Notes: a model not told the origin generated them from the letters alone. DNA of 64,000 nt from Acidobacteriota bacterium (GCA_963666215.2 CAXWPL010000005.1:896001-960000), one strand, 5' to 3'; positions 15,628 to 39,832 are shown, counted from the first letter of the stretch. A program made the numbers and translations.

Positions 15628-15706
15628 GCGGGACGGCTCCAGATCGACGTGCGATCGAAGTCAGCTCGATCGAGTGGGCTGTACCCCACCATCGCGTCCG
15701 GAAGGG

Positions 15707-18042: not shown

Positions 18043-18085
18043 CGCGTGTACGGCCGCTCGGTGGCAGGTGCCCGCGGGGCCTCGA

Positions 18086-21917: not shown

Positions 21918-22259
21918 CGCGCGGCACGGGGTTGCGGCCTGACTCGAGCTCCTGGCCCCGGTTACCGCATCTCCAGTTGCCTCGCCAGAGGTCGGCTGAC
22001 GCCGCGATTCAGCTTTTGTTCAGCGAGCTTTCAGCGATTCGTCGGGCCGCTCTCAGGACTCCTTCGTCGCGCGCGGCAACGATCTCCTGCATGCGGAAGA
22101 CAGTCCATGGGTCCCAAACAAGCACACCCGGTCGGTTGGCGACGCCAGCGTACGGGACCACGCGTTCTTGTTCAACGGGATCTTCACAGCACACGTGGCG
22201 ACCCTCGCCGTCTTCCACCCGCGTTGACTCAGGGTCGTCCCAAGCGCAGGAGAAGCGTT

Positions 22260-23834: not shown

Positions 23835-26687
23835 CTAGTGAGCCGCCGAGGCCGCCTGCCCGGCAAGGCGCTCGAAGCTCTCGGCGGTGGCCGCCGACCA
23901 GCCGCCAATCACCTGCATCACACGGCCCGTGTCGTCGAGCAGTACCGACAGCGGAACGCTGATCCGGCCGCCGACGTACAGATCGGCGACGGCCTGGTCT
24001 TGGCTGACATAAATCGGGTACCGCGCACCGATCTGTTCGACGTAGCCGGCCACGGCGCCGAGTGTCTGGGTATCTATGCTGACGCCGACCAGATCAATGC
24101 CCTGTGCGTCGAAGCTGGACTGCAGACCTTGCAACTCGGGCATCTCGAGTCGGCAGGGCACACACCACGTGGCCCAAAGGTTCACCAGCAGCCGCCGGCC
24201 CGGAGACAACAGCTGACGAAGCGACGCCGGGTCGGGCCCGGCGAGCTTCGCGCCATCCGGGATCTGCTCCTTCGTGAGCATCTGAAGGTCGGGGAACACC
24301 TCGCCAGGCCGGAAAGTCAGGCTGGTCAACAACCGCTCTTCGCTTGAGAGCGGGTCCACCAGCGAGAACCGGCTCTCTGCCACCAGCGAGTTGCGGCCAC
24401 CCTCGGTGATCTCGAGCGTCGTTCCCGCCGGAATCCCCGACCGCCACGACCCTGGCAACCGCGACACGCGCTGCTGGGCGCCGCTCGGCCAGGCAACCTC
24501 TATCCACTCCGCCCCCGAGCTGTCGCCAAGACCGAACAGCAACCGCGGATCGTTCTGCGCCAGGAAGCCCGACCCCGCCGATTTCACCGCGGTCTGAATC
24601 CCAGCCGCCGTCTTGACGCGCACCACGGCACCGAAGGCGTCGAGGCCGCTGGCGGCGCCAATCAGGCGAACGCGCACGAAGCCGCGATCGCTGCCAACGT
24701 TGTTGCGGAACAGCTCGTGCCCGTCGCGCTGCAGCGAGACCAGCACGATGTCGGTGTCGCCGTCGTTGTCGAAATCGGCGAAGGCGGCTCCACGCCCGTC
24801 GCCGATTGAATCGAGGCCCGACACGCCGGAGATGTCGATGAGGCGTTCGCCTCGATCGCTCATCCCGAGGTAGTCGCGCTCATAGCCGCTGAACGACATG
24901 CCTTCCTTGAAGATCGCCGCCATGTGATTGTCGGCGTACTCGGCGTTGCCCGCCTCCTCGATTTCTGCCTGGGCAGCCACAACGTGGCGCCAGAAGGTGC
25001 TTCACGTGTCGTCCATCGTCTTGCCCGAGATGAAGCCATTGGGCGTGTAGACGTCCTGCCATCCGTCGTTGTCGAAATCGAAGAAGCCGCCGCCCCAAGC
25101 CCAGCCGGCCGATATGCCGCCGAGATCTTGTGTGGCGTCGGTGAAGCCGCCCTCGCCGTCGCCGCGGTAAATCGAGTTGCCCGAGGCGAGCTTCTTGAGG
25201 AGCTCCGTGTCGGAGGTCGCACCGGGCAACAGGCGGCTGAGGATCCGGTTGCCGGCGGTCGACGACATGTTGGAGACGTGCAGGTCGAGGCTGCCGTCGT
25301 TGTCGAAGTCGCCAAATGACACGCCCATCCCGTTGCCCGGGTCGAGCACGCCACGCTCGGCCGCCACGTCCCGAAAACGGCCGCCCTCGTTGAGGTACAG
25401 GCCGTTCTCGCCGAAATCGTTGGCCACGTACAGGTCCTGGTCGGCATCACCGTCGATGTCGGCGAACGCCGCAGCATAGCTCCAGCGGCCGTCGCGCACT
25501 CCCCACTCGGAGCCAGCCTCCCGAAACCGCAGGTCTCCCTGGTTGATGAACAGCAGGTTCGGGGTGCCGTTGGTCGCTTGGTGCCAGGAGTTGGGCATCA
25601 CCAGGCCGTAGCGATTGTAGGAGGCCACGTAGACATCGCCGAGCCCGTCGCTATTGACATCGGCAACGGCAACGCTGAAGCCAACCGCGTCGCGATCGAC
25701 ACCGGCGCGCAGCGACACATCAAAAAACCGCAGCGCGCCGTCTGGAATCAAACGGTTCTCGAGAAACATCTGACCACCGACCGAGGCCATGAACAGGTCC
25801 TGGTCACCGTCGTTGTCGGCATCGAAGAAAACGGCGCCGGTCGCCGGCGGAGTGAATCCGAGCAGTGACGACTCCGAGACGTCGACGAAGCCACCGTCGC
25901 CGTCGTTCAAGTACAGGACGTTGCGCTCGACACCCGTGGTCAGGAGGTCGACAAGCCCGTCGTTGTCGACGTCGGCAACAGCAGGACCGTGGGCGATGAC
26001 CGTGTCGTTAGGCGCTGTCCCGAAGTTGGGGAAATGGGTGCCGACGCCCGCGGGTAGGGCGACCTCGTCGAACAGGTCGCGCTCGGCCAGCGTCGAGCGC
26101 ATCGATTCGATGTCAACACGCTCGATCTGCCAGCGGCCCTCCCCCACTCCGCGGGCGGTCATTCGCAGCCATGCCACCATCCATTCGCGTCGGCCCCTTC
26201 CATCCCGGCCAACGATCTTGAACTCGACCCGAGCGGTCCCCAGCTCGTTGTCACCAGGCTCGAACATCGACTCCTTCACCTTGAAGCGCGCATCTTCAAT
26301 GGTGCCGAAGTGAGCCAGGATCGCGCCGAAACGATCGAGAAAGTCGTCACGACCTAGCGCCACCGCGGTCGGCTCGAGTGTCCAGTCGTGGCTCCAGAGC
26401 CAGTCGCGCTGTTGCTCCGGCTCCGCTGGCGCGCCTGGCAGCATCGGACTGACGATGGTATCGGCCCAATGCGACGCGATACGGGCCGCGTCGCGATCCC
26501 GTGTGGCCACCGACAACTCGAGCAGATCGTTAGCGAGCGACTCCGAGAGGTTCTCTAGCCTCTCGAGCGCAGCGCGATCGAGGTCTTGTGACGCGCTCGC
26601 TCCGATGAGCGTCGTCAGCGCCAGAAACGCACCGAGAGCAGCCGCTGGTCGTCGTAGCAATGGGTACCCCAAGCGAGCCCGACTCAT
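23835..26687 (-). CDS. Candidate selenoprotein: signal peptide, NTF2-like domain, FG-GAP propeller, ASPIC/UnbV (CRTAC1-like) and TlpA thioredoxin, with an in-frame TGA at 25002-25004
   Basis: ORFs 25002-26861 and 23835-24980 are in the same frame, reading GKTMDDT-TGA-STFWRHVVAAQ; DxDxDGxxD repeats on both sides; GFLAQND.RLLFGLG; C-terminal NLWATWCVPC. Confidence 0.75.
24969..24993 (-). promoter_or_regulatory. Putative bacterial SECIS hairpin
   Basis: mRNA CUG-GC-GCCAC-GUU-GUGGC-U-GC-C-CAG; the apical loop starts with GU 18 nt after the UGA. Confidence 0.6.
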
Positions 26688-26862
26688 GCCCACATCCTGG
26701 CGGGGAGCTTGATTCGTTCCATAATGAGGATAAGCATATCTTGTATTCCACTTATGCGACAACAAACCCAACGCTTGGTGACCGCGTCGCCGTGAGCCGG
26801 CAAGCGGATTCTCGCAGATCGGCACCTTACTCGGGACCCACCTTGCGGGCAACGCCGCCATC

Positions 26863-27567
26863 CTACGCCTTGCTCCGCGTCGCGACAGGATGAGTCAAGG
26901 CGTAACGCCCGTCGGTGTTGTCTGTTTCTTCCTCCCATCGGCTGTTGATCTCGTCGAACTCGACGAGCGCAATCGATAACTCGCTGGCGATCCAGCCGAG
27001 AGTCCAGTCGAAGCTCGCCAGGCCGCAGCGATCGGCGCGTGCCGCCAGCACGTCCCAGTAGCGTGACTCGCCGCGGCGCCGATCCGGATGCCGCAGGGCA
27101 GGCTCGTCCAGAAGGCCGGACTCGAGGATGCGCCGGACGCTCCCGCGGGTGATGCCAAGGCCACCGCCTTGGATCGAAACCTCGGGCATCCGACCCTGCA
27201 GCGTCCCGAAGATCGACTCTCCGGCAGGCAGGCGATGAAAACGTCGCTGCACCACGCTGTCGGGGTCGATCTTCACCAGATAGTCGGTCGGGCGTTCTTC
27301 GAACAGCACGAGCATGCGCTTCACGGCAGCGCCGCCATGCTCAACGGGCAGAAGGCGATCCTCGAGGTGGAGCTCCACACCGAAGCGGTCGGGGAAGGTC
27401 GACAGGAGGGGGTCGCGGTCGCCATCTGAGCGCACGATCACGCGGGCGTCCGGGTAGCAGGCTCGCAGCTCGCCCAAACAGCGCACCGCCTGCCGGGCGT
27501 CGCGGTGGACCGCCATGAACCAGCACAGATCTTGGTCCACGTAGGAGCGGGTCACGGTCGGACTCAC
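26863..27567 (-). CDS. Glycosyltransferase-like hypothetical protein
   Basis: YLVKIDPD (DxD-like) and SIQGGGLGITR resemble GT-A/galactosyltransferase motifs. Confidence 0.5.
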   Translation of the reverse strand: MSPTVTRSYVDQDLCWFMAVHRDARQAVRCLGELRACYPDARVIVRSDGDRDPLLSTFPDRFGVELHLEDRLLPVEHGGAAVKRMLVLFEERPTDYLVKIDPDSVVQRRFHRLPAGESIFGTLQGRMPEVSIQGGGLGITRGSVRRILESGLLDEPALRHPDRRRGESRYWDVLAARADRCGLASFDWTLGWIASELSIALVEFDEINSRWEEETDNTDGRYALTHPVATRSKA

Positions 27568-27699
27568 GGGCGAGAGGGAGGCATCGACGGCGAGCTGTGG
27601 CGTTACCGACGAGCACCTATCCTGCCAGTGTGCGCCTGGTGTCGCCTACTCTCGTGGCGCCCAAAAGGGCACGATCGCCGTCAAGAAGGGTGTGAACAC

Positions 27700-28722
27700 C
27701 CCCCGTTAACGCTTTCCGCGCGGTTCAACTTCCTGCCGTTCGCCGACAACGAAGCTCAACAGGGCATCGAGATCGAAGACAAGCCGGCGCCCGACGGCAC
27801 CTACCGCATGGCTCATCTACGCGCCGTCGACGACGGGTTTTTCCGCACGCTCGGCATCCAGATGCTGGCCGGCAGGCCGCTCGAGCGCGCCGATATGCTG
27901 CCCGGCGTCCCACCGCCGGGCTCCACGGCCCCGGGCGCGGTGGGGGATAGCGCGGTCGCCGCGTCCTCACGGGGGCCGGTCGAGAGCGACCCGGTGAGCG
28001 TGGCCGTGGTCAATCAAACGCTGGCCGAGCGCTACTGGCCCAACGGCGACGCCATCGGCGCACGCTTCCGGGCCGGCGGCGACACGCTGTACCGCGTCGT
28101 CGGGATCGCCCCGGTCCTCAAGTGGCACGGCTTCGACGAGGAGCCGGTGGCCCGCTTCTACATCCCCTACACCGACGATCCGTCGCCACGCGCGGTTTCC
28201 TGCTGCACACCGAGGGCGACCCGCTAGCGCTCGCTCAGAGCGTGCGCCAAGCCGTCCAGCAGCTGGAACCCGACCAGTCCGTCTACGACATCCAGACGAT
28301 GTCGCAACGGCTGCACACGTCGGTGGCGGCCACCCGATTCTCGCTGATGACGCTGATGTCATTCGCGGCGCTCGCCCTGGCGCTCGCCGTGGTCGGAACG
28401 TACGCGGTTTTCTCCTGGCTCGTCAGCCGTCGTTCGGCCGAGATCGGCATCCGCATGGCACTCGGCGCCCGAGCCAGTCAGGTGCAGCGCCTGATGCTCG
28501 GGCAAACCGTTTTCCTTGCTGCGCTCGGCGCCGGGCTCGCCATCTTGGGGTCGCGCCTACTCGCGGGCGTGGTCCTCGAGCTACCTGTTCGAGGTAACTC
28601 CGGGCAACCCGCTCGTGCTCGCGTCGGTAACCGGCCTGCTCGTTGGCGCTGCAGTGCTGGCCACCTGGGCGCCGGCACGCCGCGCGGCGAGTATCGAGCC
28701 GGCCATCGCGCTACGCGACTGA
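27700..28722 (+). pseudogene. C-terminal fragment of an ADOP/MacB-type permease, frameshifted near 28195
   Basis: FFRTLGIQMLAGR, VAVVNQTLAERYWP, EIGIRMALGA, PARRAASIEPAIALRD spread over three frames; N-terminal half absent. Confidence 0.8.
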
Positions 28723-28827
28723 CGGCGGCCGAGTCGGGAGCGTGCTGGTTGGCGGTCGCAATCGAGCGCCGCCCGGCCCACGACACTTCCCCCACGGGCC
28801 GCTGACGTCGTCGCCAGCGGTCTCGGG

Positions 28828-29568
28828 CTACGACAGAAGCTTCTCGCGTTGTTCCATGCGTCGCAGCCCGAGGAAGGCGAACAGGCAACCAATCGCGAAG
28901 ATCCCCAGGCGATTGAGCAGCACGCGCTCGAGCCAGTAGGGGTTGTTGGTGCCGAGCGGCGGCCTGAACGGGTCGAGGAACAACCAGAAGCTCGTCTCCG
29001 CCAGGAGCTCCGCGCTCAGCAGCACCACGAACAACGACGCCGAGGCAAGCATCGCCGCGGTGTTGGCGCCGCGCACGTACACCGAGTACATGAAGGTCAG
29101 GTTGGCGACGAGGAAGGCGGGCAGGAAAGCGTTCAGCGCCACGCGTACGAAGGGGAACTCGGCGAAGAAGAAGTAGCCTACCGTACTGATCACCAGAAGG
29201 GTGGCGACAAGCACGGCGTAGAGCGCCAGCAGGCGCACCATCCAAATCGCGTAGTGCGCGCTCGCGGTGCCGAAGAGGGTTTCGAGAGTCTGATGGTCGC
29301 GCTCCCTGGCGAGCAGATCCATCGTCAGGTAAATCGCCAGCACGGTGCCAGGGATCTCGACCAGGATGATGCGCGCGTCACTGGCGTTGAATCCCTCGCT
29401 GGGATCGTAGACGACGATGGCGTAGAGAATCGCGTAGTAGATCAGCAGACCTATCGACATGAACAAGGGCTTGCGCCGGAAAGAGATACGGAAGCTCAGC
29501 CGCGCCAGACGCCAGGTGCTCCGCAGCACCTCGCCCCAGCTCAGCAGCCTGGCCTCTGTGGTGCTCAC
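28828..29568 (-). CDS. ABC-2-like membrane permease
   Basis: About 6 TM segments; DLLARERDHQTLETLF is an ABC-2 cytoplasmic loop pattern; GTGA overlap with the upstream gene. Confidence 0.7.
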   Translation of the reverse strand: MSTTEARLLSWGEVLRSTWRLARLSFRISFRRKPLFMSIGLLIYYAILYAIVVYDPSEGFNASDARIILVEIPGTVLAIYLTMDLLARERDHQTLETLFGTASAHYAIWMVRLLALYAVLVATLLVISTVGYFFFAEFPFVRVALNAFLPAFLVANLTFMYSVYVRGANTAAMLASASLFVVLLSAELLAETSFWLFLDPFRPPLGTNNPYWLERVLLNRLGIFAIGCLFAFLGLRRMEQREKLLS

Positions 29569-32500
29569 GCCGGGCTCCGTTCGCTCTCGAGCAGGTAGAT
29601 GTAGGCGTCCTCGAGCGTCGGCTCGACGTGTTGCGCCTCGACACCCTCCACCTGCGTGGCGCGGGCACTCAGGAAGCGGGCGCGAATACCGTCGGGCGTC
29701 CGCAGCTGGGTGACTACCTTGGCGTTCGTATCGCCCGAGAGCGCGTCGAGACGCTCCTCATCGACGATCGCCTCCCAAACCACTCCAGCCGCCCTCTCTC
29801 TCATTTCTTCGGGGCTGCCGATGTAAAGGATCTTGCCGCGATCGAGCACCGCCAGGCGATTGCAGCTGCCGGCGACGTCCTCGACGATGTGTGTCGAGAA
29901 GATGACGATGCGCTCCTTGCTCAGACTCGCCAACAGGTTGCGAAAGCGGATGCGCTCGACCGGGTCGAGCCCCGCCGTGGGCTCGTCGACGACGACGACC
30001 TGCGGCGTGTGCAGCAAGGTCTGCGCGATCCCGACGCGCTGCCGCATGCCGCCCGAGAACGAGCCGATCACGTCCTCCTGGCGATCTGCCAGATGCACCT
30101 GCTCCAGACACCACTGCACGCGCTCGCGCCGCTCCTCGTCGCCGCGAAAGCCCTCGAGCAGGGCGCGGTACTCGAGGTACTCACACGCGGTCATGTGGTC
30201 GTAGAGGCCGAAGCGTTGCGGCAGGTAGCCGATGACACCGTGAAGACTGCCAAAATCGGCGACCCGCTTGCCGTTGAGCAGCACCGAACCATGCGTGGGT
30301 TCGAGCACCTGACAGACGATGCGCATGAGCGTTGTCTTGCCGGCGCCGTTGGGTCCCAGGAGGCCGAACATACCGCGGCCGATCTCGAGGCTGACTCCGG
30401 CGAGAGCGGCGAACGGGGGCCGCCGTACACCGATGATGGGCACCCGGCCGGCCGCCGCGTAGCTGCGTCGGCGTAACCAGCGTAGCGGCCGCGGCCCACC
30501 CTCGATCTTGTCCGGATTGACCTTGCCGCTACGCACCCTGGCGGCGAGCCAGCGAACAGCCCCCACCGCCAGCCAGATAACAGCGGTGGCGATGGTGACG
30601 GAAGTCAGTCCAACACGCGAGTGGATGTAGGCGAACACGACACCTGCGACAACGACGCGCCCCAGAGCCCGCAGACGCACCGCACCGGGCGGCACCAGCG
30701 CCCCAACAGCACCCGCCATGTTGAGCACCAGGCCCCAGGTCAGCAGGCTGAGAAGATAGACCCAGACAGGATCCTCGAGATAGCTGTGCAGGAACACGAC
30801 GAGCCCCAGGAACAACGACTTGAACACCAACCCCTGGCGAATCTCAGCCGCCGCGACGGGTTCCAGCCCCGCAGCGCGGCGCAGCTCCATGCCGCGCTCG
30901 AAGCGCCCCCATTCGCGGCGGAAGCGGCCCGGCGCGCCATAAAGCTTGGTCAGAGTACGTAGCCTTATGGAGAGGATGGGCTCGTTACGCAGATCTGCAG
31001 CAACGCGCATCCCACGCACGCGCAGCGTCAGCCAGACGAGCGTGAGACAGGCGAACCACAGTGGCAGCACGAGCAGCGAGGTCCAGAACACGCTCTCGTA
31101 GCGGGCATCGAAAACGTAGACCAGCGCCGCGGTAGCGAGCGTCGCCGTGCCGATCCCCAGCCAGCCGATACCACGCAGCCACTCTTTGACCTGGTCGATT
31201 CCCAAGTAGGCCACGGGGATGAAGATCAGCGTCGAGACAGTCGAAACGGCCAGCCCGCCGAGGATCGTGATGGCGAACGGCGGCCACACCTCGTAGTCGA
31301 CGCCCCTTTCGAGCGCCAGCGGCAAAACACCCAGAAGCGTCGTGGCCGAGGTCATCAGCACCGGTCGCACCCGCGAGCGCCCAGCAGCGACCACAGCGCG
31401 CTCACGCCCGAAGCCGCGCGTGCGCAATCTCGAAATCGCATCAATGAGGATGATGCCGTTGTTGACCGCGATCCCGATGAGCACGACGAGGCCGAGCATC
31501 GCCATCGGCGCCGCCTGTGAGGTGAGCCCCGTTCCCGAGAGGAGGAGCGCGAGAATGGCCCCGATCGCCGCGGGTGGCAGCGTGGCGAAGACGACGATCG
31601 GCGAAGAGAACGACTCGAACAGCGCCGCCAGAATCATGTACACGAGGATCGCCGCAACCCCCATCATCCAGTAGTAGACCGTATCTACCACGGCCTCGAT
31701 GACCTCGATCGTGTAGCCAGTCGGCAGTGCCAAGCCCTGGATAACGGATCGCGTCAACTGCCGGGCGGAGTCGAGTCGCGGCTGCGAGCCGGTAACCTCC
31801 TCGAGGAACGCGTAGCTGACAATCACCCGCCGTGCCTGGTTCGTGCGCAAGATCGAGCGACGCCCCTCGTCGATGCGCAGACGCGCCAGCTCCCCCATCG
31901 CCGTCGCGCTGCCAGCGGAGTTCAACACCGGCAGCTGCGACAGATCGGCGAGACGCAGACCTCTGTTGGCGGAGCTACCGGGGCCGCCAACCTCGCCGCC
32001 ATCGAGATCAAACGGGCGCACCTCGATCACCGTCTCGGTGCCGTCCGCCTCGAGGAACGCAGTCGCAGTGGTGAACCCCTCCACATCGGATTCGCTCACC
32101 GCGTCGAGGAGCGTCTGGATCTCGACATCGCGATCGAACATGGCCATGGCGTCGGGCACGATTTGCACCTCGGGACCACTGCGCTCGACGTCGATCTGAA
32201 TCGAGTCGGGGTCGATATCCTCGACCTCCTCGAGACGAAATGCGAGATCCTCCGCGATCATCTGCATCGTCGCGAAGTCCTGGCCACGGATCACCGCGGT
32301 CTCGCCAGTGCTCCCGAGGTCAAGACTGAAGCCGCCCCCCCCACCGCCTGCGGGCCTGCCACCGCCGGCGGGCCCGGCAGCGCTGGCTGGTGGGTCGAAA
32401 CCAACAACCGCATCGGCCTCCGCGAACTGGTCGAATCCCTCGGCAAGACGATCCTGCATAGCGCTAACGCCGAGTCCGCCCGGACGCTCGTTGCGATCGA

Positions 32501-34304
32501 GCACGCTCACGGTGATGCTCCCCTGCCCCTCCTGAACGCTGCTGGTGAACCCCGCGACGCCCGCGAGATCGCCGACAGCCTCCTCAACCCGGCGCACCAC
32601 CGCGTCGGTGGCGTCGAGCGTGGCGCCCTCCGGCAGCTCGACGTAGACAGGGAACTGGCTCTCGGCCGGCACGCTCTGTTGCTGCAGCAGCAGGAAGAAG
32701 GCGGCTATGAGCGTCACCACCAGCGCCACGCCGATCGTCAGCGTCACCTGCACGCGATGCCGCAACGCGGTCTTGAGCAGCACCGTGTACATCTGCAGAA
32801 GCCGACCCGGGCGCCGTGGCGGCGGAGCGCCCCGCGACAGCGTACGCGAACCGAGCATGGGCACGAGCGTGAGCGCAACGAACAACGACGCCGCGAGTGG
32901 GAACCCGATCGGCATCGCCAGGTCGCTGAGGATGTCCTGGAAGTCGCTCTGAATGAACACCACCGGCAGGAAGACGGCTACGGTCGTGGCGGTTGACGCG
33001 ATCACGGCGCGGCGAACTTCGGCGGTACCATCGCGCGCCGCCTCCGCGGGTTTCTTGCCGCGCTCGTAGTGCTTGAAGATGCTCTCCAGGACAACGATTC
33101 CGTTGTCCGCCAGCATCCCCATCGCCAGCGCCAGCCCGCACAGCGACAGCACGTTCAGTGAAAGGTCGCCGGCGTACATCAGGTTGAACGTCACCAGCAG
33201 CGACACCGGAATGGCCACAACGAGCACCGACACGAAGCGCAGGCTGCGCAGAAAAACGAAGAGCACGACCAGGCTCAGCAGCAGGCCGATCACCGCCGCC
33301 TGCGTGAGCGTTCCCAGCGCCACTTCCATCAAGTCGGCCTGGTTGGCGCCGACGAGCAGTTGCGTGCCCGCGCCGGCGAGCTCGGAGTTGAGCCGCTCCA
33401 CCGCCGCCACCACGGCCTCCGAGACCTCGAGCAGATTCGCCTCGTCTTCCTTCATGATGCGGATGCTGACGGCCGACAGGCCGTTGACGCGACTCAGGTC
33501 GGTGCGCTGCTGCTCGCCATAGCGCACTTCGGCAATGTCGTCGAGACGCAGCGGGATCGTGCGATCGATCATCACCGCGCGCACCTGGCTCAACGTGGTG
33601 AACTGGCCCTGGATGCTCACCGGGTAGGCGCTGCTCCCGCGGTGCACTTCGCCCAGATAGGCCCGCGGTCGGTTGGCCGCGGTGATCGCCGTATTCACTC
33701 GGGTGGCCGTGAGCCCATAGGCCTCGAGCGCGTCTCGATTGAGGATCACCAACACGGCACGCCGCTGACCACCGAGTACCGTGGCGCTGACCACACCCTC
33801 AACCGCCTCGAGCTGCGGCCGAACATTCTGCTCGGTGAACTCGCGCAGCCAGTTGAGGTCGCCCTCGCCGAGCACCTGCAACTCCATGACCACGGCGGTC
33901 AAGATCGAAGTGTCGAAGCGCAGGACGCTGATCTGTGTCTGCTCCGGGAGCTGCGGCTGCAGGCGGTCCATACGGCTCTGCACCTGCAGCAGCGCGAACT
34001 TCATGTCGGTTGCGGGGGCGAACGAGACGCGCACCGTCGCGCGCCCCTGGCTAGCGTTCGACTCGAGCGCCACCACGCCCTGGAGCACACCGACCTCTCC
34101 CTCGGCAGGAATCAGCAGCTCACGCTCGGCCTGCTCCGGCGACAACGTGCGCTGGGTAAGCTGTACGAAGATCTCCGGGTAGACAACCTCGGGAAGCAGC
34201 TCAACCCGCAGCCGATCGAGCGACGCCAGCCCGAGCAAGCTCACGGCGAGAAAGAACATCGCCGTCGCGACGGGGCGGCGAATGGCGAGCGCCGAAATGC
34301 TCAT
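29565..34304 (-). CDS. AcrB/SwrC-type RND permease fused to a C-terminal ABC ATPase (~1579 aa)
   Basis: IRRPVAT, GMLADNGIVVLE, AVNNGIILID, RVRPVLMTS; then Walker A GPNGAGKT, Q-loop GYLPQ, signature FSGGMRQ, Walker B VVVVDEP and H-loop STH. Confidence 0.9.
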   Translation of the reverse strand: MSISALAIRRPVATAMFFLAVSLLGLASLDRLRVELLPEVVYPEIFVQLTQRTLSPEQAERELLIPAEGEVGVLQGVVALESNASQGRATVRVSFAPATDMKFALLQVQSRMDRLQPQLPEQTQISVLRFDTSILTAVVMELQVLGEGDLNWLREFTEQNVRPQLEAVEGVVSATVLGGQRRAVLVILNRDALEAYGLTATRVNTAITAANRPRAYLGEVHRGSSAYPVSIQGQFTTLSQVRAVMIDRTIPLRLDDIAEVRYGEQQRTDLSRVNGLSAVSIRIMKEDEANLLEVSEAVVAAVERLNSELAGAGTQLLVGANQADLMEVALGTLTQAAVIGLLLSLVVLFVFLRSLRFVSVLVVAIPVSLLVTFNLMYAGDLSLNVLSLCGLALAMGMLADNGIVVLESIFKHYERGKKPAEAARDGTAEVRRAVIASTATTVAVFLPVVFIQSDFQDILSDLAMPIGFPLAASLFVALTLVPMLGSRTLSRGAPPPRRPGRLLQMYTVLLKTALRHRVQVTLTIGVALVVTLIAAFFLLLQQQSVPAESQFPVYVELPEGATLDATDAVVRRVEEAVGDLAGVAGFTSSVQEGQGSITVSVLDRNERPGGLGVSAMQDRLAEGFDQFAEADAVVGFDPPASAAGPAGGGRPAGGGGGGFSLDLGSTGETAVIRGQDFATMQMIAEDLAFRLEEVEDIDPDSIQIDVERSGPEVQIVPDAMAMFDRDVEIQTLLDAVSESDVEGFTTATAFLEADGTETVIEVRPFDLDGGEVGGPGSSANRGLRLADLSQLPVLNSAGSATAMGELARLRIDEGRRSILRTNQARRVIVSYAFLEEVTGSQPRLDSARQLTRSVIQGLALPTGYTIEVIEAVVDTVYYWMMGVAAILVYMILAALFESFSSPIVVFATLPPAAIGAILALLLSGTGLTSQAAPMAMLGLVVLIGIAVNNGIILIDAISRLRTRGFGRERAVVAAGRSRVRPVLMTSATTLLGVLPLALERGVDYEVWPPFAITILGGLAVSTVSTLIFIPVAYLGIDQVKEWLRGIGWLGIGTATLATAALVYVFDARYESVFWTSLLVLPLWFACLTLVWLTLRVRGMRVAADLRNEPILSIRLRTLTKLYGAPGRFRREWGRFERGMELRRAAGLEPVAAAEIRQGLVFKSLFLGLVVFLHSYLEDPVWVYLLSLLTWGLVLNMAGAVGALVPPGAVRLRALGRVVVAGVVFAYIHSRVGLTSVTIATAVIWLAVGAVRWLAARVRSGKVNPDKIEGGPRPLRWLRRRSYAAAGRVPIIGVRRPPFAALAGVSLEIGRGMFGLLGPNGAGKTTLMRIVCQVLEPTHGSVLLNGKRVADFGSLHGVIGYLPQRFGLYDHMTACEYLEYRALLEGFRGDEERRERVQWCLEQVHLADRQEDVIGSFSGGMRQRVGIAQTLLHTPQVVVVDEPTAGLDPVERIRFRNLLASLSKERIVIFSTHIVEDVAGSCNRLAVLDRGKILYIGSPEEMRERAAGVVWEAIVDEERLDALSGDTNAKVVTQLRTPDGIRARFLSARATQVEGVEAQHVEPTLEDAYIYLLESERSPA

Positions 34305-35074
34305 TCCTTCGCGGCGCTGCCGGCGGCACGGGCGCGGGATCTTCCCGACCAAATCCCGTCGATCAGCTCGTACGCCACCGGAATGAGCACGAGCGTCATG
34401 ACGGTCGACGTCACCAGCCCGCCAATCACAGCGATGGCCATCGGGGCCCGCAAACGCGCCCCCTCGCCGACGCCAATGGCCATCGGCAGCAGCGCCAGCA
34501 CGGTGGTGGCGCTGGTCATCAGAATCGGCCGCAACCGATCCTGCGTGGCCTGAACGACCGCTTGGCGTAAGACCATCAGGTCTCGCTGCGGGCCGCGCAG
34601 CTGGTTGATTCGGTCGACGAGAATAATCGCGTCGTTCACCGCGATGCCGCCGAGCATGATGATGCCGATCAACGCCATCACGCTGAGCGGCTCGCCGAGG
34701 GCCGAGAAAGCAACGACCACGCCGATGCCTGCCAACGGCACCGTGAGCATGACCGTGAACGGGTGTACGAGCGACTCGAAGAGCGACGCCATCACCATGT
34801 AAACCAGTAGCATCGACAGCGCCAGGGCAAAGCCAAGGCTCTGAAACGATTCGGCGCGCTCGCGCTCCTCGCCGCCGAGCTGCACGCCGTACCCGGTCGG
34901 CAGCACGACGTCGGCGAGCGTCGCCTCGACCTGACGTGCCGCGCTGCCGAGCGTGGCCCCCTCCACGAGATATCCCGAGATCCGTCCCATGCGCCGTTGC
35001 CCATCGCGCAGAATCTCGCGCGGGCCCTCCACGATGCGCGGTTCGGCGATGTCGCCAAGGGTGAGCACAAGCAA
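34301..35074 (-). pseudogene. C-terminal ~255 aa of a second RND permease (5' part missing)
   Basis: LVYMVMASLFES, GIAVNDAIILVD, RLRPILMTS, PMAIAVIGGL; ATGA overlap with the RND-ABC gene. Confidence 0.85.
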
Positions 35075-38000
35075 CGGCTGTTCTACACCCTGCTAGCGGC
35101 GGTGCTGCTCGGGCTCTCCGTGGAGCGCTATCCGCGCTTGTCGCAGGGCGGCACGTGGCGCCAGGGGGGCCGGCTGGCGACCGTGGCCACGCTGCTCGCC
35201 GCGGTGGGTCTGTTCGTGACCATGCGGAATCAGGACGCGGCGGCTCTGCACACGCGTGCGGAGTTGCTCCGCGCCCACGTCACCCGCTCCGCGCTGCCGG
35301 CGCCCGCGGTCAGCCACTACGACCTCGATGTGCACCTGCTCGGCGACGATCGGCCGCTCGCGGTCACAGCGGATCTGCGGGTGCGAAACCCGAACACCGA
35401 ACCGATTGCCGAGCTGCTGTTCACCCTCAACCCAGGCCTGGAGCTGCGCGCGGTTCGCGACGCCAGTGGCGACGCGATGATCTGGGAGCGCGACGGATCT
35501 GTTGTAGAGATCGCTCTCGGGCAATCACTGGCGCCGGAGGGCGAGGTCTCGCTCACCCTCGAGTACGCGGGCGATATCGACCGCAATGGCTTCGACCTGT
35601 TGCGCACAGCGCCGCGAGTCGAGCGTGACGACGGTCCGATGCACATGCCCGAGCTCACGGCGTGGATCCGCGACAACACCGTCTACCTGCCGGCGCGCAG
35701 CGCCTGGTACCCCACTGCCGGCGTCGACTACGGGCACGAGGAGCCGCCGCTGCCGTCGTACGCCACAGCCGAGATCGCCGTGACCGCGCCCGCCACGCTG
35801 CAGATCATTACGCAGGGGGTACCGCAACGCGACGAATCGAGCGCCGACGACGCGTCGGAGGCCGCGTTGACGTCTGCCACGGCGACGACCACGTTCACGG
35901 TGGAGCGCGCGGTACCCGTCCTGTCGCTCAACGCGGGCACCTACCGCACTTGGGAGACGCGCATCGGCGATCTTGATCTGGCGCTCTACGTCCACCCGGA
36001 TCATGCCAGCAAGGTGCAGTTCTTCGAGGACGCCACCGCCGAGGTGATTGCGGCGGTGGAGCAGCTGCGCGGGGCCATGGAGCGCGAGACCGGAATGCGA
36101 TACCCGTACGGACGGCTGAATGTTGTCGAGGTGCCGTTCGTCGTGCAGTGGTACTACGAGGGCTGGCGCGAGGTGGGAGGGCTGACGCAGCCAGGAGTGC
36201 TGATGGTGGAGGAGGACGTCTTCACCGGGCAGCGCTTCGAACGCGACCTCCGCAGACGGCAGCAGGAATCACAAGACGAGGTGGACGTCGGCAAGACCAA
36301 GCGCGACCTGCTCGTTGCATCGATCTTCCAACTGTTCCTGAGCCCCGAGAGCGATCAGTACGGGTTATTCCGCAGTCCGCTTGTGCAGCTGTGGTCGTTC
36401 GATCGAGCCTTCGTCGGCCAGCGAGCCACGTTGCTCGAGCGAGGGATGCCTGTCTACCTACAGCAAGATGTCGGGAGCGAGGTGCGCTCGATGATGCTGC
36501 AGCGCGGCCGCGGCGGTTTCGCGGGACGCCTCCAAGCACGCGGCGGTCGCCCGCCGGCCGCGGGCGGACCGGGCGTGCGGATCACCGTCGGCGACGAGCC
36601 CCCGCCTGACTCGCCCACGGCCGGCGGCAGAAGCGACTGGGACGCCACGCTCGAGGCAATGCAGCGGCAGTCGTTCTCCGAGATGAATCCCGACGAGGAT
36701 CCAGAGCTCTACCGCTCGGTGCTCGACGTCAAGAGCATCTCGATCTTCCGCATGATGAAGGCGGTTGTGGGAGCCGACGCCTTCGTTGAGGCCCTCGAGG
36801 GATTCGCCGACGAATCGCGCTACGGGAACGTAGATTTCGCTTCGTTCGAGAAAGCGATTGTGTCCGCGGAAGCGTCCGAGGATGGCGTCGCCGCGACGGG
36901 CAGCCTCGTCGGCACCCAAACCAGGCCGCCTGACCGGATGCGCCCCGGCGCAGCCGCTGGTGAGCCTCCCCCTGAGGGGTTCCGCCGTGGCGCCTTCCGG
37001 GAGCGCATGGCCGCTGGCGCTGAGCCGGTCGACGGCGAAACCCGTTCACCGGCCGCCGGCGGTGCGCGACCGCCGGGTGCGGGTCGTGAGCAACCGCCAG
37101 GCGCTACGGGCGAGCGGCCGGCCGGCGCAACGGGCGAACGGCCACCCGGACGCGGGCGTCCAGGCGTTGGGCAAAGGCCAGCAGCAGGCCCGGAGGGCGC
37201 CAACCCGGCTGGCGAGCGACCGGCGGCTCGCCGTTTTCCCGGCGCCGACACTGGCGGCGACCTTCCCGAGGATCCGGAAGAGCGCCGCGCGATAATGCGC
37301 GAGCGCTTCGCGGCCATGCGTGCCGAGCGCGCCGCGGGCGCCGCGGGCGAAATCCCGTTTGCCGGCCGCTTCCCCGGCGGCACGCCGCTGCGCGAGCCAG
37401 AACCGCAGCGCCAACCGCAGCCCGAGCCGAACCCACACGATTCAGACCTCGAGCGCCTCGTCGCCGCCTGGCTCGACGGCACCTCGGTACCAGGCTACGA
37501 GCTCACGCGAGCCACAGCCCGCAAGGTCGAGGGCTCCGGCAACGCCGTCACTCACCAGGTGGTTGTGCGTGTGCGCAACGGCGAGCCCGGCCTGGGGTTC
37601 GTGGAGGTCAAGGTGTCGGCGTTCGGCGACGAGGTGACCAAGGGTGTCCAGATTGAGGGGGGCACGGAGGTGGAGGTGGCGCTGGTGATCGCGGCGCGCC
37701 CGACACGCGTGAGCGTGGAGCCGTTTTTCGCGAAGAACAGGCGGCCGCTGGTTGCCCCGCTGCGCGTATCCGACGAGGTCGAGGCAGGGCCTCCCGAGTC
37801 GTACGTGCACCTCGTCACCGAGGACGACGCACCGTTCGTCGAGCTCATCGTCGACAACGAGGACGAGGGCTTTTCCATGCCCGCGCGACACGTGCAACGC
37901 TACTTTCGACCCGGGCTGGCCGGCGACAACTGGTATGTCAGGTCGGCGACGTTCGCCTTTGGACGCTACGAAACCAACTACCGGTACAAGAACCCGGGCG

Positions 38001-38413
38001 ACGGTGCCCTACCCGCTGTTTGGCAGACGACGGTTCCACGCACCGGCGAGTACGACGTTGCCTTCTACTTCCTGCCGCCGTCCATTGGCTCCCGTAGAAC
38101 GGGCGTCAGCGGCCTGGCGTCCGAGTTCGACCTTACACTCGTGGGCAACGATGAAGCGGTGAGCGTGAAGCTCGACACGTCGTTGCTGCGCGGCGGATGG
38201 AACCTCATCGGACGGTTCACCTACGAGGAGGGCGACCAGGTGAGCGTCGAGCTCTCCGACCGCGCTGATGGTCGTTTGTACGCCGACGCCATCCGATGGC
38301 GCTACATCGACCCGGAGCAGCCGGCGCGCGCCTATGAGGAAGAGATCGCACCGTGGGAGTTTCGGGCGCGTCCGGGTGGGCCCGGTGGAGCTCCGAGAAG
38401 GTCCGGGCAGTAG
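35070..38413 (+). CDS. 5'-truncated membrane-anchored M1-aminopeptidase-like protein (no HExxH) with a low-complexity insert and a C-terminal golvesin/xanthan-lyase-type beta-sandwich
   Basis: QRLFY..LL TM segment, FTLNPGL, SLNAG.Y, YPYGRLNVVEVP; C-terminal IVDNEDEGF...YDVAFY...GWNLIGRF...YADAIRW. Confidence 0.65.
37055..37235 (+). repeat. Degenerate coding repeat of GERP(P/A)GA(T)-like units
   Basis: GARPPGAG-REQPPGAT-GERPAGAT-GERPPG...GQRPAAG...GERPAA; ~24-nt period near 37100-37150. Confidence 0.6.
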
Positions 38414-38639
38414 CCGCCTGCAAAACTTGTGGGATCCTGCTGGCGTCCCGACCTCGGCCGCCACGATCGTGCCTCCAACCCTCAGCCTCCAGGCTGCGCC
38501 ACATGCCCTCACCGCCGCCGAGCTTCGGAGCCCAGCGACTGCGGGTCTTCGGCCTCCTGTTGGCGGTCGCTGCACGATCAACATCGCCACCGCCACCCAG
38601 TCGCTGGCCGCCGACGCACACCCGGAAGCGCTGATCGGT

Positions 38640-38942
38640 CTACGTAACGTCCACGTCTTCGGCGCTCGGCAGGTCGACCGTTCGCCCGGTGGCACCGGCA
38701 CGACTGCGCACGTCGCCATACGCTCGGCGCGCGGCGAGCTTCCCGTCGGCGAGCGGCTCCTCGTCGAGAGCGCGATCACCGGCGGCCGCTTTGTCGGCCG
38801 CAACGTCGGCGAGACCCAGCTCGGCGGTCACCCCGCCGTTGTGACCGAGGTCACGGGATCAGCCCACATCACCGGCTTCCATCAGTTCGTCGTCGACCCC
38901 GATGACCGCCTCGCCGAAGGCTTCCTGATTGAAGACGCCTGA
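38640..38942 (+). pseudogene. C-terminal fragment of a proline racemase-family gene
   Basis: RNVHVFG.RQVDRSPGGTGT, ESAITGGRF, EVTGSAHITG...FVVDPDD.L.EGF; N-terminus absent. Confidence 0.8.
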
Positions 38943-38945
38943 ACG

Positions 38946-38984
38946 AAAAACACCCGGCCCGGGAAGACCCGGGACCGGGTGTTT
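38946..38984 (-). terminator. Intrinsic (possibly bidirectional) terminator
   Basis: AAACACCCGG-CCCGGG-AAGA-CCCGGG-A-CCGGGTGTTT hairpin with a T-tract on the minus strand, between convergent genes. Confidence 0.8.
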
Positions 38985-39014
38985 CGAAGTTGTGCTGTCA
39001 GGGTCGTGCGGACG

Positions 39015-39719
39015 CTACATCGCCGGCTTGCGGAACTTCAGCACCATACGGTCGGTGTTCGTACGGCCCGACATGCCTTCCCACTTGCCGAAATCATCGT
39101 CCGGGTTGGCAAGCATCTCGGACTTCTCGACGAGCTCGAAGCCAGCGGCCGTCACGTGGTCGATGATCACCTGCTCGTTGATGCGGTGGGTGCCTTCGTC
39201 GTAGCCGTCTTTGTTCGTGCGGGCGTCGACCACGCCGAGAACGCCGCCGGCCTTGAGCATGGCGAAGAACTGCCCGTAGGCGGCAGTCGCGTTGCCGCCA
39301 CCCTCCAGGTCGTGGAAGTTACGCACCGAGATTGCAACGTCGGCAGTACCGCCTTCAACGCCGCCGAAGTCGGCGATCACCGTGACGTTCGAGAGCCCGT
39401 CTGCCTCGACCCGCGGCGCCAGGTTGCCGCGACGATCGGGGCCGGCGTAGATAGCTCCGTGATCACCCACGAGCTTCGAGAGGATGAACGTGTTGTAACC
39501 ACCGCCCGGCATCAGGTCGACGACGGTCATCCCTGACTCCACGCCGAAGAAGGAATAGACCTCGAGCGGCTTGCTGCCGCTGTCGCGCTCGCGCTCTTCG
39601 TCCGGACGGGCCGCGTTGTCGAGAATGCTCTGCGCCAGCAGGGTGGCGGGAAGAACCAGCGCTACAACGCCCAGCAGGGTGAGAAAAGATCGTGACTTCG
39701 GGAAGTGCATGTGCCGCAT
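39015..39719 (-). CDS. Secreted predicted SAM-dependent methyltransferase (COG4798-like)
   Basis: RD..KP.EV..FFGV..GMTVVDLMPGGGY, RNFHD, LKAGG, LANPDD, TDRMVLKFRKP. Confidence 0.85.
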   Translation of the reverse strand: MRHMHFPKSRSFLTLLGVVALVLPATLLAQSILDNAARPDEERERDSGSKPLEVYSFFGVESGMTVVDLMPGGGYNTFILSKLVGDHGAIYAGPDRRGNLAPRVEADGLSNVTVIADFGGVEGGTADVAISVRNFHDLEGGGNATAAYGQFFAMLKAGGVLGVVDARTNKDGYDEGTHRINEQVIIDHVTAAGFELVEKSEMLANPDDDFGKWEGMSGRTNTDRMVLKFRKPAM

Positions 39720-39832
39720 CTCCGTGAGGGTATTGAGGTTTGGGAAGAATCAGAAGATACCGCAGCGTCTTCGGAAAGGTGCGTCCGTCCCGAGGATTGA
39801 TCTGTGAGTGACGATCTGGTTGTCTGCGCCGC

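Follow-up and report, generated by a model that had tools for sequence, protein, structure and literature searches.

RND pumps are proton-driven and trimeric, ABC transporters are ATP-driven and dimeric, and the two are taught as alternative efflux engines. The proton relay of AcrB (D407/D408/K940/R971) comprises an Asp-Asp pair in TM4, a Lys in TM10, and an Arg in TM11. The NosDFY(L) system consists of an ATPase (NosF), an ABC-2 permease (NosY), and the periplasmic protein NosD. The mdtA-mdtB-mdtC genes are arranged with the adaptor first and two RND genes behind it, and the RND stage of MdtABC has the composition MdtB2C. A review describes MdtBC as a rare heterotrimer (PMC8277102).

Our analysis of a 64,000-nucleotide stretch of DNA from an Acidobacteriota bacterium (GCA_963666215.2 CAXWPL010000005.1:896001-960000; hereafter the window) identified a conserved gene that welds an RND pump to an ABC ATPase and that, across several phyla, belongs to a fixed cassette. 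The cassette is a widespread hybrid RND/ABC export system; no description of the fusion or of the cassette was found in the literature, in agreement with an earlier, sequence-only reading of the window that knew of no characterized example. An export machine without prior description is thus indicated, and with it comes a testable question, namely how one machine could combine two energy sources with two symmetries.

The RND/ABC Fusion Gene

29565..34304, minus strand: RND-B::ABC fusion gene, 1579 aa from ATG at 34304; stop TGA 29567-29565
31200..34298, minus strand: complete RND domain, AcrB/MdtB-like (ACR_tran profile positions 1-1019 of 1021, matched by residues 19-1051, E 1.1e-168)

The frame is uninterrupted from 29565 to 34352 on the minus strand (1595 aa from a TTG at 34352 by ORF calling); the likely start codon is the ATG at 34304, which has AAGGA just 5′ to it and overlaps the upstream ORF (ATGA). 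Its product has a full RND domain and a complete ABC ATPase (Pfam ABC_tran, residues 1319-1460, E 9.7e-28), with six additional membrane helices. The single ORF of about 1579 aa described in the sequence-only reading, a full RND followed by an ATPase with intact motifs, is borne out by ORF calling, Pfam, and alignment. Both PF00873 and PF00005 occur in every one of the 120 best homologues listed, of which 109 have lengths of 1524-1646 aa; several ESM Atlas clusters of 64-143 members each carry the two families in 100% of members. A match spanning the domain junction is present in 14 of 31 related genomes, that of the window (G000) included. Full-length homologues lie on contigs of 5-8 Mb, and their source labels include Acidobacteriota, Gemmatimonadota, Latescibacterota, KSB1, Calditrichota, and Bacteroidota. 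With a 4.7-kb open frame, a third-position GC of 0.84, two strong domain matches, and more than 100 full-length homologues, a chance origin is far too unlikely. Contigs from four studies bridge the RND-ABC linker, and two of them (X4 record 17 and X9 record 25) are unbroken from 28500 to 33140. The concern that the gene might be a misassembly is answered by these contigs from independent runs and by the full-length homologues across the junction; the 1579-aa gene is a genuine, conserved RND/ABC fusion.

The best solved relative of the RND part is MdtB (9lyq_B, E 8.1e-79). No NCBIfam RND model reaches its cutoff on the fusion: the best, NF033617 (RND_permease_2), gives 462 bits against 1250, and the fusion is also below the cutoffs for MdtC (312 vs 1774 bits) and MdtB (298 vs 1584 bits). 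At the proton-relay sites, alignment with MdtB gives Asp-Asn in TM4 and Asn-Asn in TM10, where MdtB has Asp-Asp and Lys; the Arg of TM11 is kept. The same Asp-Asn/Asn-Asn pattern occurs in RND-A, the second RND of the cassette, and in an ordinary unfused RND of the same genome (own_C4_RND), so it is a trait of the subfamily and not a loss linked to the fusion.

The Tethered ATPase and Its Predicted Membrane Insert

30990..31178, minus strand: two extra membrane helices after RND TM12 (AF2 model helices 2-46 and 49-82; hydropathy)
30939..30971, minus strand: strand 1 of the ATPase (ILSIRLRTLTKLYG region), predicted to lie apart from the remainder of the domain (model strand 89-99)
30444..30926, minus strand: ATPase-domain insertion of about 160 aa (amphipathic helix, four long membrane helices, one further helix)
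29568..30398, minus strand: ABC ATPase main body and C-terminal regulatory-type domain (Pfam ABC_tran 1319-1460; Walker A 30333-30356)

An AF2 model of the 556-aa C-terminal piece of the fusion (mean pLDDT 89.8) predicts that the two helices after TM12 bring the chain back to the cytoplasmic side. Strand 1 of the ATPase follows, with K97 and Y99 invariant in 54 aligned sequences; in the structural comparison with solved ABC ATPases, each of the 50 alignments listed begins at model residue 85-89, and the facing chain residue is 0-10 in 47 rows and 35-36, the start of the NBD, in three ABCG25 rows. In the predicted model, strand 1 is split from strand 2 (275 onward) by the membrane insert, whose helices span 104-121, 129-152, 156-180, 183-208, 211-235, and 249-264. 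LptB (4p31_B) aligns over model range 88-482 with 220 residues (Z 27.7, rmsd 1.8), leaving about 175 residues as insert. Both the covalent link and the insert are conserved in 54 of 54 aligned sequences.

The ATPase motifs are invariant or nearly so in the same alignment (n = 54): GPNGAGKTT (Walker A), LPQ (Q-loop), SGGMRQR (signature), VVVDEPT (Walker B), and STH (H-loop). The modeled domain resembles TM_1403 (4yer_A; VIA Z 29.2, rmsd 4.5, 272 aligned), NosF, and ABCA-type ATPases, NosF being among the top Foldseek matches. A further ATPase encoded in the relatives' loci (ATPase2) likewise keeps all catalytic motifs and shares the C-terminal domain; to judge from these residues, both ATPases look catalytically competent.

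The Small, Putative ABC-2 Permease

28828..29568, minus strand: 246-aa six-TM ABC-2 permease, NosY-like; GTG start overlaps the fusion stop (GTGA); six hydrophobic segments

The window permease has no family match in Pfam or NCBIfam. Within its family, PF12679 (ABC2_membrane_2) is matched by 37 of 46 aligned members and PF12698 by 33 of 46 (E ≤ 0.01), and an orthologue in one related locus (L020) reaches 33.3 bits, above the cutoff of 27.2. Its third-position GC is 0.87. The AF2 model (pLDDT 77.4) has an N-terminal helix and six long helices; it is closest to NosY (7o0y_D, E 3.5e-3, TMq 0.64), with NosY, CcmB/C, and ABCG transmembrane domains as top Foldseek matches, all at E-values above 0.001. 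GTGA coupling of the fusion to a downstream six-TM ABC-2-like permease had been noted from the sequence alone, and hydropathy, the family's Pfam matches, and the NosY-like model agree with it.

Complex prediction for the tethered ATPase with the small permease gave a score of 0.53 (best of three controls, 0.00), within a range (≤0.60) given by only 18 of 157 solved complexes and by both mismatched pairs that passed; the mark itself was reached by 116 of the 157 solved complexes and, among 215 mismatched pairs, by 2. The runs share at least 86% of contacts, and partner pLDDT is at least 72. The prediction lends weak support to the pairing, and since NosFY is a solved look-alike, the pass may reflect that likeness.

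A Six-Gene Cassette in Relatives

Searches by tblastn, ORF calling, and Pfam/NCBIfam recovered all six cassette genes in each of the seven same-order loci (L017-L023). One arm encodes ATPase2 and then an ABC-2-permease::M1-like::Golvesin_C protein; the other, divergent arm encodes an adaptor (MFP; 163 bits on TIGR01730, cutoff 94.9), RND-A, RND-B::ABC as the fifth gene, and the small NosY-like permease. In each of these seven loci the fusion stands directly behind the adaptor and a full-length RND-A and ahead of the permease, whose dedicated gene always overlaps or abuts the 3′ end of the fusion in relatives' loci. An adaptor and two complete adjacent RND genes are also present at L024. RND-A and RND-B of the relatives are 31%-35% identical. 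No outer-membrane factor (OEP family) was present among the three flanking ORFs scanned.

Five other genomes of the same family are without a junction-spanning match; each belongs to genus g3 and has a completeness of 92% or more. Having been lost by these family members, the cassette is dispensable.

A Deletion in the Window Locus

34301..35074, minus strand: RND-A remnant, 257 aa (ACR_tran profile positions 788-1020 of 1021; no native start codon)
35071..35075, no strand: deletion junction, where RND-A residue ~800 (minus strand) abuts permease::M1-like residue ~229 (plus strand); tblastn and sequence
35075..38413, plus strand: permease::M1-like::Golvesin_C remnant (frame open from a fortuitous TTG at 34997; ORF 34997..38413)

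The operon with a second RND gene, joined to the fusion by ATGA, that the sequence-only reading proposed does not hold for the window: the overlap is real, but the RND is a 257-aa, 5′-truncated stump. It keeps only the last ~255 residues (the last periplasmic subdomain and TM8-12) of a ~1050-aa RND and shares 72%-79% identity with the C-terminal ends of full-length RND-A from seven relatives, with homology beginning abruptly at residue ~799-803. The space where the rest of RND-A is expected is filled by the plus-strand ORF, which contains a Golvesin_C domain (E 6.4e-14, Pfam). The M1-like remnant is without its first ~228 residues, about six ABC-2-type permease helices; this N-terminal TM domain is present in relatives, and the match to their proteins starts at residue 219-229. 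Peptidase_M1 is below its cutoff of 27.7 bits in the window protein (17.1) and in the L020 orthologue (22.6). M1 aminopeptidases carry HEXXH and GXMEN motifs, found in none of eight M1-like sequences; "M1-like" is a loose label only. For the earlier suggestion that the system may secrete or assemble surface proteins or glycans, the sub-threshold M1-like region and the Golvesin_C domain offer only hints.

About 5.3 kb of the relatives' locus, equal to L017 positions 12860-18112, is missing from the window. Four of the six cassette genes are removed or cut down. ATPase2 and the adaptor are gone, together with the shared promoter region; RND-A is shorter by ~800 aa, and the M1-like protein has lost its permease part. 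Contigs bridge the junction in 4 of 4 runs examined, from four studies, and the deletion-bearing form is present in 20 runs from eight studies. No orthologue of the MFP, ATPase2, the RND-A N-terminus, or the M1-like N-terminus was found in the window or the whole genome (91.7% complete), where the best other matches to the lost genes are paralogues, 27%-40% identical; because of that completeness, relocated copies in unassembled DNA remain conceivable. By the tblastn comparison, a single ~5.3-kb deletion is what produced the present locus.

Both remnants are still open frames. Mean p-distances to outgroups, given for G000 versus the intact G003, are 0.392 versus 0.381 for the fusion, 0.267 versus 0.247 for the RND-A remnant, 0.510 versus 0.497 for the M1-like protein, and 0.437 versus 0.440 for the permease; on these values the G000 genes are not clearly faster-evolving. 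The open remnants and the lack of clear excess divergence suggest that the deletion is probably recent. A promoter scan gave 0 sites against 1.1 expected, with a sigma-70-type consensus only, which says little for the host lineage.

As far as its coding content goes, a heteromeric RND/ABC machine cannot be built from the window locus: RND-A is a stump, the adaptor and ATPase2 are gone, and the M1-like protein is without its permease half. As a deletion derivative, the window copy is a poor template for whole-machine modeling or annotation transfer ("two RNDs" is wrong there). It documents a route of cassette loss and provides a natural test of stand-alone function for the fusion-plus-permease pair.

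Proposed Function and Alternatives

We consider it probable, on balance, that the window holds a recently crippled copy of a hybrid cassette whose small permease works beside a heteromeric RND pump and is driven by a tethered NosF-like ATPase. Where the cassette is intact, this ATPase would power an ABC-2 (type V) exporter formed by the small permease, possibly as a heterodimer of the tethered ATPase and small permease with ATPase2 and the permease::M1-like protein. The GTGA overlap, the TM_1403/NosF/ABCA-like ATPase model, and the NosY-like permease model are the basis for pairing the tethered ATPase with the small permease. The exporter would be kept beside the MdtBC-like RND-A/RND-B heteromer, and a substrate leaving the cytoplasm or inner leaflet would pass to the proton-driven RND/adaptor stage, a hand-over that we infer from gene order alone. 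The hybrid of an ABC exporter with a heteromeric RND envisaged in the sequence-only reading stands at the family level, where the gene set is complete in 7 of 7 same-order loci, and fails in the window, where the partners are deleted. There the machine would no longer be assembled, and the fusion and permease would be survivors of the deletion, not a working operon.

Continued function of the two surviving genes would look the same, and a reduced but working module has a real though minor chance. In one form of it, RND-B with its tethered ATPases would be a homotrimer and the small permease a homodimer, served by an adaptor borrowed from another RND operon and by a new or read-through promoter. 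The fusion and permease frames are intact, high in third-position GC, and translationally coupled, without excess divergence from intact relatives; the genome has other adaptor-plus-RND pairs (e.g., C4:446072-450249), and a lineage found in 20 runs from eight studies is evidently successful. Against this, the locus has lost its native promoter region and its dedicated adaptor as well as RND-A, the partner that lies next to the fusion in all seven same-order loci; the upstream DNA on the minus strand is only antisense to a 3.4-kb gene remnant; and the cassette, wholly lost in other members of the family, is dispensable. The truncated remnants are equally "intact," which speaks for time, not selection, as the reason for the open frames.

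A different division of labor, in which the ATPase acts on the RND itself (an ATP-driven or ATP-gated RND, with the six extra helices coupling hydrolysis to the RND TM domain), would account for the conserved covalent link and unusual membrane insert (54 of 54 aligned sequences) and for an RND-B without the TM10 Lys and second TM4 Asp of MdtB/AcrB. We regard it as improbable: the unfused own_C4_RND and RND-A have the same residues, the TM4 Asp and TM11 Arg are retained, a dedicated ABC-2 permease gene is always at the 3′ end of the fusion, and an ABC ATPase requires a dimer partner whereas RND pumps are trimers. Somewhat less doubtful, and still unlikely, is an elaboration of the favored tethered-ATPase-and-permease scheme into a dual-energy exporter of fixed stoichiometry, RND-A2/RND-B1, whose one tethered ATPase would pair with ATPase2 and whose small permease would pair with the permease::M1-like protein, giving an asymmetric type V exporter welded to an RND and making the window a natural "half-machine." If so, ATP-driven extraction from the inner membrane would be mechanically coupled to proton-driven expulsion, and the window would show which parts persist alone. 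Finally, contigs of two runs break at 30338-30363 and the genome assembly consists of five contigs, 91.7% complete, as might be expected if the fusion, the 5.3-kb gap, or both came from chimeric or collapsed assembly. That break falls on Walker A, whose words are common to many organisms and so raise the depth 5- to 50-fold, and two other runs cross it in the single contigs noted above. With the deletion junction bridged in every run examined and full-length homologues on 5-8-Mb contigs, an artefact is already contradicted and has next to no probability.

Comparison with Known Systems

MacAB-TolC likewise spans the envelope with an ABC ATPase, a permease in the membrane, and a periplasmic adaptor, and the structural matches include the ATPase domain of MacB (5lj9_B, Z 26.2, rmsd 2.3, 219 aligned). 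Whereas the cassette has an ABC-2-type permease and an ATPase joined to an RND, MacB carries its ATPase on its own type VII (FtsX-fold) permease and has no RND component. GldA/GldF/GldG and DrrAB pair an ATPase with a six-TM ABC-2 permease, and the NCBIfam ATPase models that score highest on the tethered ATPase/ATPase2 are GldA (176/173 bits) and DrrA (167/186 bits); these scores are well below the cutoffs of 402.6 and 312.45 bits, so neither is an equivalog. The cassette has no GldG-like gene, and those systems have no RND link.

NosDFY(L) is similar in several respects. The fusion ATPase model matches NosF (7osf_B, E 2.7e-19; also 7o14_B and 7o0y_C) among the top Foldseek matches, NosY chains fill eight of the top ten rows for the small-permease model, and some homologues are labeled "multi-copper enzyme maturation permease" by JGI. 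There is also a loose parallel between NosY plus NosD and the cassette's second permease, which is fused to a large periplasmic domain. The window permease has only 15%-18% sequence identity to NosY, nos genes are absent nearby, and the periplasmic partner is M1-like/Golvesin_C instead of the NosD beta-helix. Unlike NosF, the cassette ATPase is tethered to an RND and, in the predicted model, interrupted by a membrane insert.

The relatives' adaptor gene followed by two adjacent RNDs resembles MdtABC-TolC and MuxABC-OpmB, each with two RND paralogues. Unlike these, the window is without an adaptor, a complete second RND, and, among the three flanking ORFs, an outer-membrane factor. The cassette RNDs have Asp-Asn in TM4 and Asn-Asn/Asn-Asp in TM10 in place of Asp-Asp and Lys, and one of the two paralogues carries ~530 extra residues, comprising six helices and an ABC ATPase.

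The Fusion Gene

The cassette occupies four reading frames of the window:

28828..29568, minus strand: small permease, an ABC-2-like ORF of 246 aa
29565..34304, minus strand: RND-B::ABC, an RND subunit joined to a tethered ABC ATPase (the fusion)
34301..35074, minus strand: ORF upstream of the fusion, a remnant of the partner RND gene (RND-A)
35075..38413, plus strand: remnant of permease::M1-like, a protein with ABC-2 permease, M1-like, and Golvesin_C parts

The minus strand carries all three ORFs of the sequence-only reading (fusion, upstream ORF, and small permease). Between a TTG at 34352 and the stop at 29565 the fusion frame stays open for 1595 aa; its likely start is an ATG at 34304 (1579 aa), with AAGGA 4 nt before it and an ATGA overlap with the upstream stop. 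At its 3' end, the TGA stop and the downstream ORF's GTG start share bases (GTGA). Pfam identifies a complete ACR_tran domain (residues 19-1051, profile positions 1-1019 of 1021, E 1.1e-168) followed by ABC_tran (residues 1319-1460, E 9.7e-28). The best NCBIfam models for the RND and ATPase parts, RND_permease_2 (462 bits, cutoff 1250), GldA (176 bits, cutoff 402.6), and DrrA (167 bits, cutoff 312.45), score far under their curated cutoffs, so the fusion is a superfamily member with no named equivalog.

The RND::ABC fusion is real. The misassembly or local chimera that the sequence-only reading had allowed for is contradicted by full-length homologs spanning the junction and by contigs of independent runs bridging the linker. 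A search with the junction-spanning residues 1000-1595 among proteins of 877-2792 aa yielded 4328 matches at E<=0.001 from 7999 scored candidates; all of the 120 best listed homologs carry both PF00873 and PF00005, 109 of them are 1524-1646 aa long, and their identity over the junction region is 39-64%. By their source labels, the homologs come from metagenome-assembled genomes of Gemmatimonadota, Latescibacterota, Acidobacteriota, KSB1, and Calditrichota; the contigs carrying them are 5-8 Mb long in some cases. Fragments labeled Bacteroidales, Prolixibacteraceae, Aminicenantes, and others came from a second search. Both families occur in 100% of the members of several ESM Atlas clusters (64-143 members each). 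Junction-spanning matches were found in 14 of 31 related genomes, the host included, and, at E<=1e-100, in 13 of 201 genomes of an even phylum sample, confined to three families (f1, 2/8; f2, 7/8; f8, 3/3).

DNA of the stretch is present in 20 runs from eight studies, and contigs of four runs from four studies were mapped to the window. For RNA no such run was listed, which bears on expression in neither direction. The whole linker is crossed in single contigs by two of the four (X4 record 17 and X9 record 25, both 28500-33140). Contigs of the other two break at 30338-30363, the Walker A motif, because short contigs of many other organisms share Walker A words and depth jumps there. Summed contig depth at 30102-30368, peaking over the Walker A/P-loop coding stretch, is 125-166 in all four runs versus 3-25 in flanking bins.

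A search for unfused forms among proteins of 305-973 aa returned fragments at contig ends for the most part. Of the 120 matches listed, seven lack PF00873 and lie on contigs of at least 20 kb (P0245, P0255, P0256, P0259, P0273, P0295, and P0324). Split or stand-alone forms of the fusion are possible.

The Cassette in Relatives

Stretches of 20 kb around the fusion gene were taken from eight relatives, seven from the same taxonomic order (loci L017-L023) and one from a more distant genome (L024). By tblastn, ORF calling, and Pfam/NCBIfam searches, a fixed six-gene cassette is present in seven of the seven same-order loci.

Table. Genes of the cassette in loci L017-L023
Gene; arm; description
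ATPase2 (separate ATPase gene); first arm; ~300 aa, 42-46% identical to the tethered ATPase
permease::M1-like; first arm; ~1165 aa, ~six N-terminal ABC-2-type membrane helices, sub-threshold Peptidase_M1 region, Golvesin_C
RND adaptor; divergent arm; TIGR01730, 163 bits versus cutoff 94.9
RND-A; divergent arm; ~1030-1060 aa
RND-B::ABC fusion; divergent arm; after RND-A
Small permease; divergent arm; after the fusion

HEXXH and GXMEN, the catalytic motifs of M1 peptidases, are absent from all eight M1-like sequences, and NCBIfam gave no match on this protein; "M1-like" is a loose label. At L024 the M1-like protein is followed by adaptor, RND-A, fusion, and small permease, all on one strand, with an ATPase-like stretch at the locus edge; in tblastn of this locus the ATPase2 query matched only the ATPase domain of the fusion itself, and the N-terminal permease query matched nothing. 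At L019 (genome G011; 1409-6067, minus strand), ATPase2 and permease::M1-like share a single uninterrupted 1552-aa frame, possibly another natural fusion in this cassette (ATPase-permease-periplasmic domain).

A Deletion in the Window

The second RND gene that had been placed in an operon with the fusion proved to be a stump of 257 aa, left by a ~5.3-kb deletion that gutted the cassette. The upstream ORF matches ACR_tran profile positions 788-1020 of 1021 only (Pfam). Minus-strand homology to RND-A starts abruptly at ~35071, at RND-A residue ~799-803 ("VLTLGDIAEPRIVEG"), and plus-strand homology to permease::M1-like starts at ~35075 ("RLFY"), which corresponds to residue ~229 in the protein of the relatives. 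Compared with the relatives, the window lacks the first ~228 residues of permease::M1-like, ATPase2, the divergent intergenic region, the adaptor, and ~800 residues of RND-A, a stretch corresponding to L017 positions 12860-18112. Queries with the missing parts found no ortholog in the window by tblastn and no relocated copy in the whole genome, where the best other matches are paralogs at 27-40% identity. Position 35071 is bridged by contigs in four of the four runs mapped, from four studies (X1 record 8, X2 record 16, X4 record 24, and X9 record 31); the source sample may be among these runs. The deletion is thus genuine and widespread in the lineage.

On the plus strand, 27505..28227 and 28122..28805 are overlapping ORFs read in separate frames, and they match only positions 494-626 and 618-754 of the 803 in the ADOP duplicated-permease model (79 and 129 bits versus a cutoff of 622). 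From these matches the region 27505-28805 reads as a 5'-truncated, frameshifted ADOP pseudogene, convergent with the cassette; L019 has a full 910-aa ADOP permease (960 bits) in the same place. Besides the deletion, this pseudogene also points to gene decay at the cassette locus. Two further genes, at 23835-26861 (minus strand) immediately past the cassette, encode proteins with FG-GAP/ASPIC-UnbV repeats (619 and 381 aa); the 381-aa product additionally carries a thioredoxin-like AhpC/TSA-Redoxin domain. A 508-aa protein (22107-23633, plus strand) matches the HtpX zinc metalloprotease over its C-terminal 265 residues (149 bits versus a cutoff of 412) and has an N-terminal extension of ~210 aa without a family match.

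The window copy is probably a recent relic. Both remnants, of RND-A and of permease::M1-like, are open frames, neither with a native start codon. Mean protein distances to four outgroups, compared between the host genome (G000) and the intact G003, are 0.392 versus 0.381 for the fusion, 0.267 versus 0.247 for the RND-A remnant, 0.510 versus 0.497 for the M1-like protein, and 0.437 versus 0.440 for the small permease. Relaxed selection after the deletion gave no signal, the excess being just 0.01-0.02 in three of the four segments and the intact G001 being more divergent than both genomes. It is also conceivable, if doubtful, that a reduced module still works with borrowed partners, as the intact fusion and small permease might suggest; since the unusable stumps show no decay either, that intactness is taken to indicate recency and does not prove function. 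No junction-spanning match occurs in five genomes (each at least 92% complete) from a different genus of the family, so the cassette is dispensable in the group. A scan of 28000-40000 for sigma-70-like promoters found 0 sites versus 1.1 expected, but a sigma-70 consensus has no diagnostic value in this lineage.

The Tethered ATPase and the Small Permease

An AF2 model of fusion residues 1040-1595, built on a 54-row alignment (mean pLDDT 89.8, pTM 0.76), starts at the end of RND TM12, continues with two more long helices, and then has an 11-residue strand (model residues 89-99) inside the conserved "NLTKIYGAPGRFRREW" region, where K97 and Y99 are invariant across the alignment. The strand is followed by an amphipathic helix, four long helices (129-235), one further helix, and, from residue 275 onward, the remaining ATPase, whose Walker A motif spans 294-301. 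When the model is aligned to solved ABC ATPase structures, each of the 50 alignments listed begins at model residue 85-89 and pairs it with the beginning of the solved chain's ATPase domain (chain residue 0-10 in 47 rows and 35-36 in the three ABCG25 rows). LptB (4p31_B) aligns over model range 88-482 (Z 27.7, rmsd 1.8, 220 residues) and TM_1403 (4yer_A) over 272 residues (Z 29.2, rmsd 4.5). These alignment starts place the isolated strand at the ATPase first-strand position, so that in the model strand 1 is split from strand 2 by a membrane insert of ~175 residues. The even number of extra helices (2 + 4) would keep the strand and ATPase body cytoplasmic, like the RND termini, a placement that we infer from the model and hydropathy. 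Foldseek ranks highest TM_1403, NosF, and ABCA1/3/4/7, which are ABC-2-type ATPases carrying a regulatory domain at the C terminus; ATPase domains fill the Foldseek and VIA matches, and the six extra helices are thus barely probed against known folds.

The description of the downstream permease as ABC-2-like holds at the family level, with weak support from its fold. The 246-aa protein alone matched no Pfam or NCBIfam model, and its family has 127 members at E<=0.001; among 46 aligned members, 37 match PF12679 and 33 match PF12698, and some homologs carry the JGI label of a NosY-type "multi-copper enzyme maturation" permease. In its AF2 model (pLDDT 77.4), six long helices accompany a helix at the N terminus; NosY chains fill eight of the ten top structural rows (best 7o0y_D, E 3.5e-3, TMq 0.64), and the nearest solved chains after NosY are CcmB/C and ABCG transmembrane domains. 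An X4 contig (one contig, depth 8.45) has an 8-base insertion (GGCGCCGC) at window position 29064, which would shift the small-permease reading frame in that strain.

Proposed Mechanism of the Intact Machine

In the intact machine, the tethered ATPase and small permease, whose genes overlap, would form a NosF/NosY-type (type V) ABC pair. A two-chain prediction with the C-terminal 556 residues and the permease scored 0.53 (best of three controls, 0.00). Among solved complexes, 116 of 157 reach this value, as do 2 of 215 mismatched pairs, although scores <=0.60 include only 18 of the solved complexes and both mismatches that passed. The runs agreed in at least 86% of contacts, with partner pLDDT of at least 72. 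The prediction lends weak support to the pairing; memorization of the solved NosFY structure may account for the pass. The tethered ATPase and ATPase2 keep all catalytic motifs and share the same C-terminal domain, and the cassette holds two ABC-2 permeases, which makes a heterodimeric exporter plausible, with the tethered ATPase paired with ATPase2 and the small permease with permease::M1-like. Such an exporter would fit an MdtB2C-like A2B trimer presenting a single tethered ATPase.

That ATP instead drives the RND itself seems improbable, and is judged less likely than the ATPase-permease pairing: the dedicated permease is never missing, and unfused relatives show the same RND motifs. The best solved relative of the RND part is MdtB (9lyq_B, E 8.1e-79). 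The RND part has Asp-Asn in TM4 versus Asp-Asp in MdtB, and Asn-Asn in TM10 versus Lys-Asn, with the TM11 Arg kept. An ordinary unfused RND of the host genome has the same Asp-Asn and Asn-Asn, and RND-A of the relatives has Asp-Asn in TM4 and Asn-Asp in TM10; the pattern is thus a trait of the RND subfamily and not a loss linked to the fusion. Proton-relay loss as a specific sign of an ATP-driven RND was ruled out, since the ordinary RND shares these residues.

Comparison with Known Systems

A literature search at the level of listings and abstracts found no description of an RND-ABC fusion. Passages of a review of tripartite pumps mention MdtBC heterotrimers and the ATPase fusion of MacB itself, and these passages make no mention of an RND-ABC fusion (PMC8277102). 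The fusion belongs to an interesting, undescribed hybrid family, and what is new here is that the window copy is a deletion derivative of the cassette. The closest known systems are two-RND pumps of the MdtABC/MuxABC type, NosDFY, MacAB-TolC, and the ABC-2 exporters GldAFG and DrrAB; none of these has an RND and an ABC ATPase in one chain, whereas the fusion does.
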